From Escherichia phage HP3.2, in sequence record OP978391.1: DNA of 64,000 nucleotides; one strand, 5' to 3'. Positions within the stretch are counted from its first letter, which is position 1. Every line of letters begins with the position of its first letter. Shown here piece after piece: positions 15,032 to 61,605 of the stretch. The position numbers and the translations under genes were made by a program. Under the pieces are notes generated by a model that saw nothing but the letters and a program-made list of their open reading frames with translations, was not told the DNA's origin and did not search any database.

Positions 15032-15399
15032 TTAAATTTAATGGCTTGAAGAAGACTAATAACTCTCAAGCGGCTTCTTTCATCTTTAACTGTAAAAGAA
15101 AGAGGGTCACCAGATTTCATAGTGATAGTGCATTCAAAATCAAAATCTTCGGGAACTTCTTCGAATAGATTAAATTCTTCATCATATATTAGAACATTAC
15201 TCTGAAAACTGTGAAGAATTTTTCCGTCATTTCCAGATGCTGTACTAATCATTGTAACGTTATTACCTTTCATATCTTCAACGATAAATTCGCTTGTAGA
15301 TATTACATTACTAATAGAACCATTCCTATAAATAGCAGAAAATAGATATTTCTTTTCTTCACCTTCGCGAATGCGATATTTCTTACCGATTTTAAACAT
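15028..15399 (-). CDS. Hypothetical protein, about 123 aa
   Basis: ATG MFKIGKK preferred over track GTG start. Confidence 0.55.
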   Translation of the reverse strand: MFKIGKKYRIREGEEKKYLFSAIYRNGSISNVISTSEFIVEDMKGNNVTMISTASGNDGKILHSFQSNVLIYDEEFNLFEEVPEDFDFECTITMKSGDPLSFTVKDERSRLRVISLLQAIKFK

Positions 15400-51814: not shown

Positions 51815-52433
51815 TATATTTCCAAGTATATCCCTTATGAATAGATTGAATTCCTTTGCAACATTTATAAACAGCAGAATGAAAAAATCCTGCATTTCTT
51901 ATTTCAGTTGCTCCAGTTAGTTCTATTGTATTTCCGTCTGGTGAATAGCCAATAACCGTTTTGGTGTTAAAGCGATTTCTAGAACTATTTTTGATATGCT
52001 CTTTATGACTAGTAGACAAAGTTCTTCCTGTTAGCCCATCAGATATCCTTTTTCCAAAATCATCAGGAAGAGTTACTTTAGACCTAGCTATGCTCATTAG
52101 CTTCTTAGTTTTATCGCTTCTTTTTGCGCCACGCTGATTTTCAAATTTCTTAGCTTTTGCATACGCGTATTGTGAAGAAGTAACTTTTCTATGCTTACTA
52201 TTACTCATTATCCAATATGCATCATACATCTTTCCACCATATATTTTAGCCAATAAATGGTGAGCAGTATAGTGGGCCTTATAAGTTAAAAATACTAAGT
52301 TGTCTAAATCATCTGAACCACCCATACTTCTTGGAATTATATGATGAAGTTCATACCCGGCTTTAGTTTGACGGGGCTTAGATGGGTGTTCAGCAGAATT
52401 AACTAGATTTGAATAGATTCTGTCATAATTCAT
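51801..52433 (-). CDS. HNH homing endonuclease (mob-type) inserted between nrdD and nrdG
   Basis: HNH motif ELHHIIPRSMGGSDDLDNLVFLTYKAHYTAHH; N-terminus MNYDRIY duplicates the nrdG start. Confidence 0.8.
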   Translation of the reverse strand: MNYDRIYSNLVNSAEHPSKPRQTKAGYELHHIIPRSMGGSDDLDNLVFLTYKAHYTAHHLLAKIYGGKMYDAYWIMSNSKHRKVTSSQYAYAKAKKFENQRGAKRSDKTKKLMSIARSKVTLPDDFGKRISDGLTGRTLSTSHKEHIKNSSRNRFNTKTVIGYSPDGNTIELTGATEIRNAGFFHSAVYKCCKGIQSIHKGYTWKYKDEL

Positions 52434-55366: not shown

Positions 55367-55576
55367 TTAACCCCGAAGCTTATTAAGTTCTTCATAATCA
55401 ATCCAAGATTCTAGTCCTGATGGCAGGTCACATTCAATTTCCCAAAGAAGTTCTTCAATTTTCTGAAGACGATCTAGTTCTTCGGCTGGAATAGTAACCA
55501 TTGACGGAGCTCGTGATACATTAATATCGTAAATCATATTTACCCCAGTTTGACCATGCAATCGCCGTATTTCCAC
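55367..55576 (-). CDS. Hypothetical protein, 69 aa
   Basis: Track ORF. Confidence 0.45.
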   Translation of the reverse strand: MEIRRLHGQTGVNMIYDINVSRAPSMVTIPAEELDRLQKIEELLWEIECDLPSGLESWIDYEELNKLRG

Positions 55577-55755
55577 TTAGAAATAGACTTTTCGCCATTA
55601 GAATAATAAACTTCGAGTTTAGCACGATTATTTTTAATTTGAATAACCTTGGCTGTCATCAAAGTTCCATACCCATAATAAACTGCAACTTCATCACCTA
55701 CATATACCGCGCTTCCGCGGTAATCATGAATATAGTCAGTTCCTTCGAGCATCAT
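55540..55755 (-). CDS. Hypothetical protein, 71 aa
   Basis: Track ORF. Confidence 0.45.
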   Translation of the reverse strand: MMLEGTDYIHDYRGSAVYVGDEVAVYYGYGTLMTAKVIQIKNNRAKLEVYYSNGEKSISKWKYGDCMVKLG

Positions 55756-56261: not shown

Positions 56262-56651
56262 TTAATCCAAAATATTATTAGGCATTGGTTGAACACTCAC
56301 AAGTTCTTTAAAGAACTCAGTAGAGTCAGGCAATTTAACCATTTCCGGAGCATGCTTACTGAATTTATGTTTACATTGACGGCATTTATATTCAAGCTCT
56401 GGTTTACGCCAGTTAATCAACTGAACTTGTTCAGTACCGCATTCAGGGCAATTAGGAACGTTTTTAGAAGCTCTTTCACGTCGTTCAACCATAGCCATAA
56501 TAGCATCCCATGCTGGAGGTTTAAAATCTAAATCGTCGCAGCCGTGAATCTTTCCACGCATTTCCATATCATCTTCCTCACCAGCCATAATAATTTTAAT
56601 TAAACTGGAATTACTTGAAGCTGCAATGTCTTCTAATAAACGCTTTTTCAT
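56262..56651 (-). CDS. Zinc-ribbon protein, 129 aa
   Basis: CPECG...CRQC Cys pairs. Confidence 0.5.
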
Positions 56652-57577
56652 TTCAATACCTCAATAGCATTACGTAAACCATTTGCTTTTGCATTAAGAG
56701 CTTTTAACAATTTGGTGTGTTCTGCAATTTGGGCTTCAACTTCAATCAAACGGGCATTGAGATATTCACGTTCTTCACTCAGATTATCAACCTTTTCTAC
56801 TTTAGGCTCTTTTACAACTGTCTTATATGTATTAGGGTTCTTCAGTTTAATTAGAATGCGTGAACTGTATAACATTGAACCATTATCTTCGGTTTCGTCA
56901 TACATTTCCACTACGTCCATAATTTTTAACATCATGCGGAGTTTATAAGACAACGAACGAATAGTTTTGTTGTGCTTATTAATTTCTTTAGCTGTCATGG
57001 TGCCAAGATTACGTGAGTAATAATAAGGAACCTGGATATTAATTAATACTGATGAACCACCTGGCTTGTGTGTTACTTCATCAGCAATAACCCAGTCCTT
57101 AACATGAACTGTATTTGTACGGTCATCGCCCGCGGTAAATAGTTTGCGAGCATGCTTAAAAAGCATATTCACTTGGTCATTGAATTGACAAGCAAATTTA
57201 TCAGCAAATTTAGTTTCAGGAATGGTAGAAAACCAATCAGCCAAATGAGTCTTTTTAACATCATTAACAATAGTAAATTCAACCAAATCGGTTATAGATG
57301 TCTCAGATTTAATGAAGCTCGGCTTCATAAAGTTTTTAATGTTCTCATGAGCTACAGTAGAAGATAACATACGAGAACGTTTAAACCATTCAAGCAAATT
57401 GCCTAACGAATGAGAATAAGCGTTTTGAGTATCTTTACAGATATGATTTTCCTGACCAACATATTGAAGGAAATCACGAAGAATATTATTGATTACTGCT
57501 CTGTGCCCGATCTGATAATTACGGTGTTTAGTAATAAGACTGTCAAAATAATCAATATAATGTTTACGAGTTTTCAT
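56648..57577 (-). CDS. Tandem paralog A (309 aa) with C-terminal coiled coil
   Basis: N-terminus MKTRKHY and motif LFKHARKL shared with paralogs B and C. Confidence 0.6.
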   Translation of the reverse strand: MKTRKHYIDYFDSLITKHRNYQIGHRAVINNILRDFLQYVGQENHICKDTQNAYSHSLGNLLEWFKRSRMLSSTVAHENIKNFMKPSFIKSETSITDLVEFTIVNDVKKTHLADWFSTIPETKFADKFACQFNDQVNMLFKHARKLFTAGDDRTNTVHVKDWVIADEVTHKPGGSSVLINIQVPYYYSRNLGTMTAKEINKHNKTIRSLSYKLRMMLKIMDVVEMYDETEDNGSMLYSSRILIKLKNPNTYKTVVKEPKVEKVDNLSEEREYLNARLIEVEAQIAEHTKLLKALNAKANGLRNAIEVLK

Positions 57578-57629
57578 ATTCTTCTCACTTGGTTAATGGT
57601 TTATACTCCGAGCCATCCTTGGCTTTAAA

Positions 57630-58631
57630 TTACTTAATTAACTGTAAAGCTTGTTCAAGACGATCAAGACGATTAACGGATTCTTCCCAAATCTTTTTAG
57701 CCTGCTCATATTCTTTCTGCGCTTTATTAGAAATTTCTAGAACTTCTTTATAAGCTTTTTCTAGTGCAATAACTTCTGGACGAATTTCTACTGGTTCAGG
57801 CGAATCGTCAAGACATTCCATTAGTTCCTCAAGGGTAGTTTCTTCTTTAGGAGTATTCACAATTTCATCACATTTTTGTTGGTAAATTTCTTTATCAGTC
57901 GGTGAGTACGCACACTTTACTTCACGGAGACTAACTACAATTTTATATCCTTCCCAACCGCATATATTCTTAAAAGGATAAGTATGAATATTTTCTACTG
58001 TTTCCATACAAAGTAATGCGGTCTCTAACTGACGAGTTATATCGCTAGCAATTGAGAAAAATTTATTAATGTTCTTTTGATTAGCTTCTGGTGTAAAAAA
58101 TTCATAATTCACAAAAATAGCTGCTTTATTTTTATCAAGCTCATATTCTTTTATGATAATCATATCAGAAGCCCAAGGATGGATTTGACGATAATCACCA
58201 TAGCATAATTTAGAAGCTGATTTTAGAATTTGCTTCTTGAAAAGTCTAAAATTACTAATCCAACGACGAGTAAAAATATTCTCAGGGTCTTCTTTATTAT
58301 TAAGATGATAAGAATTAACATCACCGAACCAACTGTATCCTACTACATCTTTAGTTCGTTTAATTTCTTTCCCAAATTTACCAAGAATATCTTGATTAAC
58401 TAAATATGAAAGAAGACGAGAACCTTTAAAAGTTTCCTTAATATCATCTTTATATTCGCGACTAGAAATTTTATGAACTTCATGAATAAATTTGCTTGAA
58501 GAAACAATACTTGCATCAATATTATTGAGCCATTGATTGATAATGGAAATAACACTATTCTGACTAAACACAGGTTTAACTTTATCATCAATAACGCTAT
58601 TGAATGATTTGATATATTCGTTACGAGTCAT
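57630..58631 (-). CDS. Tandem paralog B (about 333 aa) with C-terminal coiled coil
   Basis: Start MTRNEY with GAGGAG RBS; motif LFKKQILKSASKL aligns with paralog C. Confidence 0.6.
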   Translation of the reverse strand: MTRNEYIKSFNSVIDDKVKPVFSQNSVISIINQWLNNIDASIVSSSKFIHEVHKISSREYKDDIKETFKGSRLLSYLVNQDILGKFGKEIKRTKDVVGYSWFGDVNSYHLNNKEDPENIFTRRWISNFRLFKKQILKSASKLCYGDYRQIHPWASDMIIIKEYELDKNKAAIFVNYEFFTPEANQKNINKFFSIASDITRQLETALLCMETVENIHTYPFKNICGWEGYKIVVSLREVKCAYSPTDKEIYQQKCDEIVNTPKEETTLEELMECLDDSPEPVEIRPEVIALEKAYKEVLEISNKAQKEYEQAKKIWEESVNRLDRLEQALQLIK

Positions 58632-58659
58632 ATTAATCTCCTCAGTAGAAAGTAAGAAC

Positions 58660-58689
58660 ATTATACCACATCCTTGTGGCAAAGTAAAC
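58660..58689 (-). promoter_or_regulatory. Early sigma70-like promoter
   Basis: GTTTAC, 18-bp spacer, TATAAT; near-identical to the 12846 promoter. Confidence 0.5.
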
Positions 58690-59711
58690 TAGTTTAGTGC
58701 ATTTAGTGCGTTGTTCAGTTTAGAACGTTGCTTCGTAAGATTTTTGACTTTTTCTTGAGCTTTTTCTAGCATCTTTTCAGCTTCTAACACTTCATTAGTT
58801 GCTTTAACGAGTTCATCATCTACTGCCTTGATAGACTTCTCAATCGCATCCGCGTGCCATTTTTCAACAGGTTTAAGACTCGGATTTTCAACAGGAAGAA
58901 AATTCACTTTATTGAATTTCCATGTATCTTTATTACCTGAACTATACATCCAAAATTTAGGATCGTTTGATGAGTAATTGGATAAATTTAAGATATCTTG
59001 CACTTCCTGCTTTTTCTCTTGCGGGACTTCGTCCTTTCTCAAAAAATCGTATTTAAATGAAACGATCATATCAAGTTCATACGTTGTTGTATGTTCCCAA
59101 TTTCGCTCAAAATGAGGTAAAATCTTAGACTGAACCGCGGCAACTACATCCATATACTTAAATGCTTCTGTCAACTGTGATTTAAGGCATTCACAAATTG
59201 AAAGAGAATTTTTTGTATTAGGTTTAAAGCTAATTCGTGCAGTTCTGTTATTTTCTTTTAATGGTCTTACTTCCATCTGAAGAGTATAACCATCAAATTT
59301 CAGATTCTTTAAGTTAATATCAGAACCTTTTAATCGACTAGCAGTAGACAAAATTTGCTTTAATTGTTTACGGAATAGAGCAATAAATCTCCATTCAATA
59401 CGATAATGATTTGGATTGAAAAATCCAGATGATAAATCGACCTTACTCTGACCAACACCTTGAACAAATAGAGGATTTTTATAATCAATAGTTTTACAGA
59501 AATCGGTGAGCTGTTCACGAGCAGTCATTTGAGTAATATACCCAGCTTCATTAAAATTACGCACCCATTCACTGCTGTTCAGATGTTTAAAGGCGTGAAT
59601 GGAACAATTAACTTTACCAAGGTCTAAATTATTTTCGCACAAAAATGTCATAGCATCACGAGTATAGCTGGCATTACGAACCATATCTTCAATTTGAGAA
59701 CGAGTTTTCAT
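58689..59711 (-). CDS. Tandem paralog C (340 aa) with C-terminal coiled coil
   Basis: MKTRSQ N-terminus; motif LFRKQLKQILSTASRL. Confidence 0.6.
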   Translation of the reverse strand: MKTRSQIEDMVRNASYTRDAMTFLCENNLDLGKVNCSIHAFKHLNSSEWVRNFNEAGYITQMTAREQLTDFCKTIDYKNPLFVQGVGQSKVDLSSGFFNPNHYRIEWRFIALFRKQLKQILSTASRLKGSDINLKNLKFDGYTLQMEVRPLKENNRTARISFKPNTKNSLSICECLKSQLTEAFKYMDVVAAVQSKILPHFERNWEHTTTYELDMIVSFKYDFLRKDEVPQEKKQEVQDILNLSNYSSNDPKFWMYSSGNKDTWKFNKVNFLPVENPSLKPVEKWHADAIEKSIKAVDDELVKATNEVLEAEKMLEKAQEKVKNLTKQRSKLNNALNALN

Positions 59712-59719
59712 GGTGTTCC

Positions 59720-60628
59720 TTAAGATTTAAGTAAATCGATAATTTTAATTAACTTTTCACGCTCAGATTTAGCTTTACTACTCAGTCCAGATAGTCTGAA
59801 AATTTCATCATCATATTGTTGAATAGAAATATTCAGCTCTTCAATTTGCTTATTAAAATAATCAATTTGCTCAGAATGTTTTTCATTACTACGAACTGGT
59901 ACAGGTTTTGTAGGCAATTTAGTTGAACTGGATTCATCCGGGCGATAAATTAAAATACAACTTGAACCAATAGGGCATTTTGCACCAGATGAATATTCTA
60001 ATGTTCCGGCTTCTTTTAAAACTTCAAAAGCTAAACAGAGATGATGCCCCATATTAACATAATCTGTAGAGTGAGCTCTGATATAATAATCATCGCCACG
60101 AATACTAAATTTAAAGCATTTAAGGTCTTCTGTATTATTGGTCTTAAAAATCATTTGTTTATCTAGACCTTTAGCTAATCGAGCGCCTAATGCTAATAAT
60201 CGTCGTTGATTTTCCCACAAATCTGCGATCATTTGGTCAAATGATAATTTCGGCATTAATCGACCATAAAGGTCATATCCTTTATTATAATTGCGAAGGA
60301 TTTCACTCGCATTAATACGAGACAACGCTCCAATTTTATTAAGGGCTTTCATGATGCGATTAGATAAACCCATTCCAGACCCGTTTGTTCGTTGTAAATG
60401 TTTATCTAATCCAAACCCAATATCAACTTTAAATTTATCTAAAATTTCAGCATGAACATCTCTGTCAATAACATTCAAATCCAAAGTTGGGTTAAATCTA
60501 TGAAAAAATTTATCTGGCTCTCCACGACGAAGTACAGTCCATTCATTCAATTTTTTATTAACTAAAGATTTAATTACTGCATTGACATTATTAATTACTA
60601 CTGACATATTTTCCTCACTCAATTTCAA
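59720..60628 (-). CDS. Tandem paralog D (302 aa) with C-terminal coiled coil
   Basis: Weaker similarity (LWENQRRLLALGARLAKG); same architecture. Confidence 0.55.
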   Translation of the reverse strand: MKLSEENMSVVINNVNAVIKSLVNKKLNEWTVLRRGEPDKFFHRFNPTLDLNVIDRDVHAEILDKFKVDIGFGLDKHLQRTNGSGMGLSNRIMKALNKIGALSRINASEILRNYNKGYDLYGRLMPKLSFDQMIADLWENQRRLLALGARLAKGLDKQMIFKTNNTEDLKCFKFSIRGDDYYIRAHSTDYVNMGHHLCLAFEVLKEAGTLEYSSGAKCPIGSSCILIYRPDESSSTKLPTKPVPVRSNEKHSEQIDYFNKQIEELNISIQQYDDEIFRLSGLSSKAKSEREKLIKIIDLLKS

Positions 60629-61022
60629 TTTTACTAAATATACAGAATAAGATGGAACAGACTATATAAGCACCACACACAGATTGAACTAATACCATTC
60701 CAAAGAACCAAACAATATTATCAAACAATGTCTGTTTTACGTCGAAAGGACGTAAACTTACAGTAATATTATCGCCTTTTTCTATTGATGAATACATCTC
60801 TGGTGAAATATATTCGCTAAATCTATAACCGTCTTTGAGTTCATATACAGCAATAAACGATAAACTAGACCCCTTTCCTTGAGTTCCTGTAAAGGTATTA
60901 ACTACAGTAACATCATAATCTTTATAATGCATATAATCATTAATTGCGTAATAACCATATGCAACTACTACACATAAACAACATATCAATAAATTCAATC
61001 TTTTAATTATCAACTGTTTCAT
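60615..61022 (-). CDS. Membrane protein, 135 aa
   Basis: N- and C-terminal hydrophobic segments. Confidence 0.55.
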   Translation of the reverse strand: MKQLIIKRLNLLICCLCVVVAYGYYAINDYMHYKDYDVTVVNTFTGTQGKGSSLSFIAVYELKDGYRFSEYISPEMYSSIEKGDNITVSLRPFDVKQTLFDNIVWFFGMVLVQSVCGAYIVCSILFCIFSKIEIE

Positions 61023-61077: not shown

Positions 61078-61605
61078 TTATGCGAGTACCGTCTTTAACC
61101 GTTCTTCAAACTTCCGAAGAGTATTTTGGCGTTCAGCTCTTTGCTTTTTGTAAGTTTCAATACGCTCTGAAATGAGAGTGTATCGTTCATTTACTGATTC
61201 TTTCATAAAATCAGGAATTTCACGAGAAGCTTTAATCTCATCAAATTTATCAATAACAGCTTGCTCTTCAGCAATTAAGTTATCATACATCAAAATATCT
61301 TTCTTGATGAACTCAATATCTTCTTGAGTTACACGAGATAATTTAGATGCTTTATCCTTTTTGTACTGTTCGTTAGTATCACGAGACCAGTGTAATGTAC
61401 GATTTTTATTCGTATTCTTGTAAATTTCTACAATACCAATCTCATCGATAATAACGATCCAATTCCAACGAGATTTGTAAATTTGTCCTCCGTCAACCGT
61501 GATTTCACCTCCGATTGAGATGTCATTAAAGAACTTGCTTTGTGCTTCAGATTTAAATTTACCATCGTTGTAATTTACCAGGTTGAAAATATCTTTAGCG
61601 TTCAT
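61078..61605 (-). CDS. Hypothetical protein, 175 aa
   Basis: Track ORF with its own early promoter. Confidence 0.55.
   Translation of the reverse strand: MNAKDIFNLVNYNDGKFKSEAQSKFFNDISIGGEITVDGGQIYKSRWNWIVIIDEIGIVEIYKNTNKNRTLHWSRDTNEQYKKDKASKLSRVTQEDIEFIKKDILMYDNLIAEEQAVIDKFDEIKASREIPDFMKESVNERYTLISERIETYKKQRAERQNTLRKFEERLKTVLA

Follow-up and report, generated by a model that had tools for sequence, protein, structure and literature searches.

When supplied alone on a plasmid, the T4 gene nrdC.5 restored plating of a T4 deletion mutant on Escherichia coli carrying ECOR17 Dsr1, as described by Srikant et al. (2022, eLife, PMC9391042). Dsr1 is a SIR2-domain protein thought to deplete nicotinamide adenine dinucleotide (NAD+), and its tetratricopeptide repeat (TPR) sensor is reported to recognize the phage major capsid protein (2026 preprint, PMC12803255). 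In T4 none of the genes nrdC.3, nrdC.4, nrdC.5 and nrdC.6 is essential (HIDEN-SEQ supplement), deletion of the nrdC.1-6 block is tolerated (PMC9825161), and published counter-defence genes lie in the neighbourhood: nrdC.1, which acts against Septu, and, in T6, 49.2, which acts against OLD. Here the orthologues of these four genes are described in a 64,000-nucleotide stretch of DNA from Escherichia phage HP3.2 (OP978391.1; the whole stretch is called the window below). Their products, designated C3, C4, C5 and C6, are very probably diverged members of one protein family. The genes themselves, three database families and the NrdC.5 phenotype were already known; the superfamily link, a domain model and a natural series of one to four gene copies are new. 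In the searchable papers nrdC.3 and nrdC.6 are not mentioned, nrdC.4 is mentioned once in passing and the relationship among the four is not mentioned, and the four-way link appears to be unreported.

Over 5.1 kb around the array, the DNA matched Escherichia phage HP3 at 100% identity and hundreds of T4-like coliphages at 95-99%; the source phage is a T4-like phage (Tequatrovirus). The four open reading frames (ORFs) are collinear with the annotated T4 genome. They are located on the minus strand between nrdC.2 and nrdC.7, downstream of nrdC.11-nrdC.7 and upstream of nrdC.2-nrdC.1-nrdC, and have the following coordinates (aa, amino acids).

56648..57577, minus strand: C3, orthologue of nrdC.3, 309 aa; in one family with nrdC.4 (PHROG 1435; Pfam Phage_T4_Y04OP); a divergent allele with 61% identity to T4 NrdC.3
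57630..58631, minus strand: C4, orthologue of nrdC.4, 333 aa from the ATG; 92% identity to T4
58689..59711, minus strand: C5, orthologue of nrdC.5, 340 aa; Pfam DUF7235 (420 bits); 91% identity to T4 NrdC.5
59720..60607, minus strand: C6, orthologue of nrdC.6, 295 aa from the ATG; Phage_T4_Y05B / PHROG 2257

The open frame of C4 extends upstream to a TTG at 58682. The four consecutive minus-strand ORFs had been recognized in the original prediction, made from the sequence alone, but there the fourth gene was started at 60628, giving 302 aa. C6 probably starts at the ATG at 60607 (295 aa) and not at the upstream TTG, because this ATG is preceded by a GAGGA Shine-Dalgarno sequence and because it is also the start in the RefSeq annotation, in the PHROG profile and in all homologues.

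Relationship among the four proteins

BLASTP comparison of the four proteins gave a significant match only for C3 and C4 (E 6e-6, 25% identity over 229 residues), and none for the other five of the six pairs. The databases are divided in the same manner. In PHROGs, C3 and C4 belong to one family (PHROG 1435; 7.8e-116 and 2e-166, respectively), while C5 and C6 are placed in separate families, C6 matching PHROG 2257 at 5e-153. The newer Pfam entries are split alike into Phage_T4_Y04OP (C3/C4), DUF7235 (C5) and Phage_T4_Y05B (C6); near-identical homologues of C4 carry PF26897 and homologues of C6 carry PF26899. C5 matched the DUF7235 hidden Markov model (HMM) over residues 1-340 with 419.8 bits, the cut-off being 30 bits, and C3, C4 and C6 had no match to this model.

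Profile-profile comparison reached further. The C5 profile was broadened with divergent orthologues from related phage loci before comparison, and the single-copy proteins of Kanagawavirus and of Klebsiella phage Marfa were used as intermediates. The hhalign results were as follows.

C3 versus C4: 98%, E 1e-13
C3/4 versus C5, full length: 92%, E 7e-7
C4 versus C5, last 55 residues removed: 90%, E 1.4e-6
C6 versus C4, direct: 13-18%, E about 1e-3
Kanagawavirus single-copy family versus C6: 95% (body only 65%), E 7e-8
Kanagawavirus family versus C5: 81%, E 1.3e-5
Klebsiella phage Marfa single-copy protein versus C4: 95% (body only 96%), E 2e-8
Marfa protein versus C5: 95%, E 1.6e-8, a match dependent on the tail
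C6 plus Kanagawavirus versus C3+C4+C5 plus Marfa-type, full length: 97%, E 1e-10
C6 plus Kanagawavirus versus C3+C4+C5 plus Marfa-type, body only: 92%, E 7e-7

The similarity between C3/4 and C5 was located in the body of the proteins, not in the coiled coil. The direct alignment of C6 was weak yet collinear along both proteins, and in the broadened comparison the two signature motifs described below came into register. In control comparisons no neighbouring protein, NrdC.8 included, scored above 1.2%, and no shuffled sequence above 3%. Comparisons between the families restricted to the tails were weak (39% or less). The Marfa protein combines a C4-like body with a C5-like tail.

Two short motifs were present in all four proteins, in the same order. 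Motif 1, [ILMV][LFI]xx[AG][SAR][KR][LK], occurred once per protein, at residues 139, 135, 120 and 137 of C3, C4, C5 and C6, and had a single extra occurrence in the 20,292 residues of the other open frames of at least 100 aa in the window. The internal motif that had been proposed for the four proteins is thus, in this degenerate form, real and specific. It is also the most conserved block of the C6 family. Motif 2, [LI][ST]xxx[NA]x[DE]x[LI]x[KND][FY], was found once per protein, upstream of motif 1, and nowhere else; as this pattern was derived post hoc from the four proteins, only its absence elsewhere and the conserved order carry weight. The copies of motif 1 are the following.

57140..57163, minus strand: motif 1 in C3, MLFKHARK, residues 139-146, followed by L..AGDD
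58206..58229, minus strand: motif 1 in C4, ILKSASKL, residues 135-142, in model helix 132-142, followed by ..YGD
59331..59354, minus strand: motif 1 in C5, ILSTASRL, residues 120-127, followed by KGSD
60176..60199, minus strand: motif 1 in C6, LLALGARL, residues 137-144, in model helix 134-144, followed by AKGLD

An M(K)TR start is common to C3 (MKTRKHY), C4 (MTRNEY) and C5 (MKTRSQ), and T2 and R3 are invariant in the alignment of these three families. The MKTR/MTRN start had been ascribed to all four proteins, but C6 begins with MSVVINN.

AlphaFold2 models were obtained for C4 (mean predicted local distance difference test score, pLDDT, 84; predicted template modelling score, pTM, 0.69) and for C6 (pLDDT 78.5, pTM 0.66). 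In the C4 model a helical N-terminal part precedes an alpha/beta domain, which a disordered linker (residues 261-283) separates from the C-terminal helix. The core elements follow each other in the same order and with nearly equal spacing in the two models, and in both of them motif 1 lies in the second helix of the helix pair.

Helix pair: C4 residues 119-130 and 132-142; C6 residues 123-132 and 134-144
Short helix: C4 145-148; C6 147-150
First beta-hairpin: C4 158-174; C6 165-178
Helix after the first hairpin: C4 185-208; C6 186-199
Second beta-hairpin: C4 212-235; C6 204-221
After the second hairpin: C4 low-confidence linker and terminal helix; C6 low-confidence linker and terminal helices

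When the models were searched with Foldseek against BFVD, C4 and C6 did not match each other directly. Both matched, over the full length, the same uncharacterized proteins of 300-375 residues from T4-like phages (Straboviridae), with E-values from 1e-4 to 1e-7 and template modelling (TM) scores of 0.29-0.50. These shared matches include proteins of IME523 (A0A7G3KGN9), PM2 (A0A0A0PZG4), Acj9 (E5EPQ6), Cronus, Mineola and fHe-Yen9-01, phages of Enterobacter, Pectobacterium, Acinetobacter, Erwinia, Klebsiella and Yersinia. Searches of the PDB sequences, for which C5 and the profiles of C4 and C6 served as queries, gave no real match and no member with a solved structure; the matches to designed helical repeats that appeared there were low-complexity noise.

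The best 35-residue heptad window was at or near the C-terminus in each of the four proteins, with z values against shuffled sequences of 3.0, 1.5, 4.9 and 3.2 for C3, C4, C5 and C6, respectively. In the models the terminal helix of C4 spans residues 285-332 (48 residues), and that of C6 is divided into 242-271 and 277-294 (30 and 18 residues). These data support the heptad-like C-terminus originally noticed in all four proteins, and the heptad pattern together with the two models suggests that the helix may form a coiled coil. The last 48 residues were more conserved than the body in nine of ten orthologue pairs (e.g. 0.67-0.69 versus 0.45-0.46 for C6).

56651..56797, minus strand: heptad-like C-terminal helix of C3, approximately residues 261-309
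57633..57779, minus strand: C-terminal helix of C4, residues 285-333, ending in ...RLEQALQLIK
58692..58850, minus strand: C-terminal heptad helix of C5, approximately residues 288-340, with the top heptad score (z 4.9), ending in ...KLNNALNALN
59726..59884, minus strand: C-terminal helices of C6, residues 242-271 and 277-294, ending in ...KLIKIIDLLKS

The C-terminus of NrdC.8 (61078-61605 in the window; 175 aa; Pfam Phage_T4_Y05D) is a heptad-like helix as well (z 3.3); in profile comparison it had no similarity to the four proteins (0.7% or less).

Taken together, in each protein a variable alpha/beta body (~240-280 residues) is connected through a disordered linker to a C-terminal helix of 45-50 residues. 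The claim that the four genes are diverged tandem paralogues was borne out by the profile comparisons, including those of the bodies only, by the motif order, by the order of elements in the C4 and C6 models and by the shared BFVD matches. Of the two kinds of alignment by which it could be checked, BLASTP linked only C3 and C4, whereas profile comparison linked all four, C6 through intermediates. The paralogy is beyond chance but deep. Common descent of all four proteins is very probable, with C6 as the least certain member.

Distribution and evolution of the locus

When 1.84 billion representative proteins were searched exhaustively with an HMM profile in which C3, C4 and C5 were merged, 16 matches were obtained, all from T4-like phages or fragments of them, and no bacterial or other relatives. 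At the level of sequence, the family is confined to T4-like phages. Scans of IMG/VR viral contigs gave 6-7 loci each only. With tblastn, C3, C4, C5 and C6 were found in 653, 553, 607 and 741, respectively, of 50,697 phage records.

The number of copies at this locus varies from one in Marfavirus and Kanagawavirus to four in HP3 and T4. Phages NC-G and MN01 have three (C6-C5-C4) and lack C3. In one locus (L006, 4925-7948) there is a divergent C6'-C5''-C3' array without C4, and in another (L004, 5916-6948) C4 is frameshifted. Rearranged genes were also encountered: P0056 is a NrdC.5::NrdC.3 fusion by which C4 was removed, and P0121, from Shigella phage Sf25, is a NrdC.6 of 378 aa with an internal duplication. 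In Acinetobacter phage Acj61 the tandem pair E5E4A1/E5E4A2 was not found in the 36-56 kb region.

The divergence between HP3 and T4 is given below as protein identity and as the ratio of nonsynonymous to synonymous substitution rates (dN/dS).

C3: 61% identity; dN/dS 0.30 (dS about 1)
C4: 92% identity; dN/dS 0.17
C5: 91% identity; dN/dS 0.21
C6: 97% over the 259 residues before a frameshift in the T4 reference; dN/dS 0.20
nrdC, nrdC.1 and nrdC.8-.10: 98-100% identity; dN/dS 0.00-0.15

The four genes are under relaxed yet purifying selection, and positive selection is unsupported by the HP3-T4 values. Since the 61% identity of C3 comes with a dS of about 1, C3 is an old allele that was swapped in by recombination. 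No DNA repeats longer than 27 nucleotides (nt) were found within the array, therefore the duplications must be old, with no recent duplication or gene conversion.

Several features of the surrounding DNA were recorded. The T4 reference NrdC.6 (NC_000866; locus L001, 10067-10894) has 275 aa, and since its residues 260-275 align to HP3 in a different frame, it lacks the greater part of the C-terminal helix. In a recent annotation of T4 (HIDEN-SEQ supplement) nrdC.6 is an 891-nt gene; the frame difference may be a sequencing error or a strain-specific frameshift. Between C6 and C5, NC-G (L009, 5838-6050) and MN01 (L010, 5826-6041) have an ORF for a hydrophobic, membrane-like polypeptide of 70-71 residues, which is missing there in HP3 and T4. 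An 803-bp ENA metagenome contig encodes a protein (P0236; L021, 120-641) in which an unrelated N-terminus of 114 residues is joined to the exact NrdC.5 C-terminal helix and followed by a normal C4 start; its upstream DNA is unlike T4, and the protein, a domain swap or an assembly chimera, was not used as evidence. The orthologue of nrdC.2 (56262-56651) is longer than its T4 counterpart (129 versus 104 aa); the first ~100 residues are 78% identical, and the HP3 protein contains CPEC...CRQC, a motif resembling a zinc ribbon. As the start of this gene and the stop of C3 share 4 nt, the two may be translationally coupled. T4 49.2 and 49.3 had no match in HP3, and their position (55367-55755) is occupied by two unrelated small ORFs of 69 and 71 aa. 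A stretch between nrdG and nrdD (52149-52433) is 39% identical to the T4 MobD homing endonuclease. Unlike in T4, nrdD is uninterrupted (605 aa), without the I-TevII intron.

Proposed function and rival explanations

The array belongs to the early region, because an early promoter precedes C4 and no late-promoter motif is present.

58660..58688, minus strand: T4-early-type sigma-70 promoter in the intergenic gap between C5 and C4 (GTTTAC, 17-nt spacer, TG-TATAAT), with a GAGGA ribosome-binding site and the ATG of C4 downstream

The T4 late-promoter core TATAAATA was absent from the array region. In the whole window it occurred twice (at 15327 and 25453), compared to about 10 occurrences expected by chance; this scarcity fits a window in which nearly all genes are early or middle genes of the minus strand.

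Scans of Pfam, NCBIfam and PADLOC yielded, beyond DUF7235, only coiled-coil noise (PHL, XerD-N, BrxC) far below threshold. Clear homology to a characterized structural or enzyme family, which would have contradicted the original prediction, was thus found neither in these libraries nor in the PDB sequence searches. In many GenBank and RefSeq records the orthologues of nrdC.3-.7 bear the name 'thioredoxin', among them HP3 gp160 (C5) and gp158 (nrdC.7) (56648-61022 in the window; RefSeq NC_041919, locus L002). C3-C6 have no CxxC sequence and gave no thioredoxin-family match in Pfam or NCBIfam, indicating that the label is an artefact of the gene name nrdC.x; thioredoxin or glutaredoxin identity was ruled out on these grounds. 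The idea that the proteins are DNA mimics was also rejected, because three of the four are basic (pI, isoelectric point, about 9).

The explanation that we favour, and consider reasonably probable, is that nrdC.3-.6 constitute an old, locus-bound family of non-essential early genes, which grew by tandem duplication at one place and has a counter-defence role exerted through binding by the body. The fast-diverging alpha/beta body would bind and neutralize a particular host immune protein: in the case of NrdC.5 the target would be Dsr1, the SIR2-type NAD+-depleting protein, and the other three paralogues would each have a target of their own. The amphipathic C-terminal helix might dimerize or oligomerize the protein or dock it to a common partner. 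Inhibition by direct binding, rather than by enzymatic action, is suggested because there is almost no invariant polar residue across the families, and the lack of enzyme-family matches in the searches described above points in the same direction. The early guess of a host-interaction or anti-defence function has been confirmed for one member, T4 NrdC.5 acting against Dsr1, whose orthologue C5 has the same position and 91% identity. Judged by this identity, HP3 NrdC.5 would act against Dsr1 like the T4 allele. C3, C4 and C6 may be anti-defence proteins as well, and nrdC.3, nrdC.4 and nrdC.6 are good candidates for undiscovered counter-defence proteins.

Some of the data weigh against this explanation. 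A phenotype is known for only one of the four genes, in T4 and under plasmid over-expression, with no biochemical mechanism. The boundaries of the complemented T4 deletion are not stated in the text consulted (PMC9391042), so that nrdC.5 need not act independently of the other paralogues, and HIDEN-SEQ showed no fitness effect for nrdC.3-.6 in one strain comparison (q = 1.0). HP3-T4 dN/dS values of 0.17-0.30 mean purifying selection, and the divergence of C3 is that of an old allele, not of rapid evolution in place. The membership of C6 escaped BLAST, family-level hhalign (13-18%) and Foldseek, and intermediates were needed to see it. The fold evidence covers the C4 and C6 models, compared by the order of their elements and by shared BFVD matches, and the heptad score of C4 is weak (z 1.5).

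Four other explanations were considered. The four proteins could be subunits of one hetero-oligomeric early complex serving a single task in host takeover, and the anti-Dsr1 effect would belong to the complex or be a by-product of it. The ending (K/R/G)L..A(I/L)..L(K/N) is common to the four tails, whose conservation exceeds that of the bodies; in the C4 and C6 families both surface and core positions of the helix are conserved; and C6 and C5, separated by a gap of 8 nt, are probably co-transcribed. But natural losses have been independent (C4 is present in 553 and C6 in 741 records, and C3 is missing, C4 missing or frameshifted, or a single gene present, in the phages and loci named above), the tails of the families scored 39% or less against each other, and nrdC.5 alone sufficed for the Dsr1 phenotype when supplied from a plasmid; we regard such a complex as unlikely. 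A low probability, if not quite so low, is given to an early housekeeping or host-physiology role, such as remodelling of the nucleoid, the membrane or metabolism, with an indirect rescue from Dsr1, e.g. through NAD+ metabolism or delayed exposure of the capsid protein. Such a role would agree with the lack of a published NrdC.5 mechanism, with the setting among the nucleotide-metabolism genes nrdD, nrdG, nrdC and tk and with the basic character of three of the proteins. Against it stand the absence of any enzyme or DNA-binding family match in the libraries scanned, the dispensability of all four genes in the laboratory host, a copy number that varies and alleles that are swapped, as is typical of accessory host-range genes, and the immediate neighbours, which are direct inhibitors of defence.

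That the four genes are unrelated, and merely have coiled-coil tails of similar composition, is very improbable and has already been largely refuted. BLAST failed for five of the six pairs, and coiled coils do give spurious profile matches, as seen with the designed helical repeats and BrxC; however, comparisons of the bodies only still scored 90-98%, NrdC.8 with its heptad tail scored at most 0.7%, and motifs, order of fold elements, length and locus are all in common. Hardly credible is a role in the virion or its assembly (tail-terminator-, tail-completion- or scaffold-like), to which the coiled coil and the top fold matches in the PDB could point. The early promoter before C4, the lack of a late promoter in the region, the non-essential nature of the genes and a copy number of one to four all speak against it. 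Identity with tail terminator or tail completion proteins was rejected, as the scores were weak, there was no sequence signal, and the genes are early, non-essential and copy-variable.

The favoured counter-defence role can be extended to a more specific and more speculative model, which we consider unlikely: NrdC.3-6 might be modular inhibitors or decoys of bacterial pattern-recognition sensors of virion proteins. Made early in infection, interchangeable bodies oligomerized by the constant coiled coil would each occupy a sensor of its own, either one of the Dsr1/Avs7 TPR class or some other that recognizes structural proteins, before the capsid and tail proteins appear, and the weak tail-terminator-like fold of the body would be virion-protein mimicry. 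If this were true, T4-like phages would carry a diversifying family of receptor antagonists in 1-4 copies, and the three orphan members would point to defence systems that have so far not been linked to T4.

Few phage answers to the NAD+-depletion defence of Dsr1 are known, NrdC.5 being one of them, and family membership provides three candidate counter-defence genes, nrdC.3, nrdC.4 and nrdC.6, in hundreds of therapeutic-type T4-like coliphages including HP3. The domain model, in which a variable body bearing the two signature motifs is joined by a linker to a conserved C-terminal helix, is open to truncation and domain swaps, and the natural series of one to four copies, with its allele swaps, can be compared with host range. 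The widespread 'thioredoxin' mis-annotation is corrected; a new kind of system is not revealed.

Comparison with known systems

The closest described relative is T4 NrdC.5 (DUF7235, PF23882). C5 resembles it in length (340 aa), in its position between nrdC.6 and nrdC.4 and in 91% of the residues; the ~9% that differ are mostly in residues 31-60 and 190-280. The Pfam family PF26897 (Y04O = NrdC.3, Y04P = NrdC.4) holds C3 and C4, and PF26899 (NrdC.6) holds C6. What the databases keep as three separate families of unknown function is joined here, by profile, motif and fold evidence, into one superfamily.

Outside the T4-like phages, DSAD1 of SPbeta-like Bacillus phages offers a working analogy for NrdC.5: it is described as a phage protein that blocks the SIR2-domain NADase DSR2 by binding. 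The two differ in that DSR2 senses the tail tube, whereas the Dsr1 sensor senses the major capsid protein, and for NrdC.5 such binding to Dsr1 is hypothetical. The tail terminator and completion proteins (lambda gpU, SPP1 gp17-like, DUF3168) show weak fold resemblance only. The array has features in common with other accessory anti-defence loci of T4, such as the dmd-tifA-adfA 'anti-TA island', 49.2 (anti-OLD) and nrdC.1 (anti-Septu), which are likewise early, non-essential, variable in presence, host-range-determining and located in the same hyperplastic region. Those loci, however, are small, unrelated single genes, whereas in the nrdC.3-.6 array a family of ~300-340 aa proteins has been multiplied in tandem.

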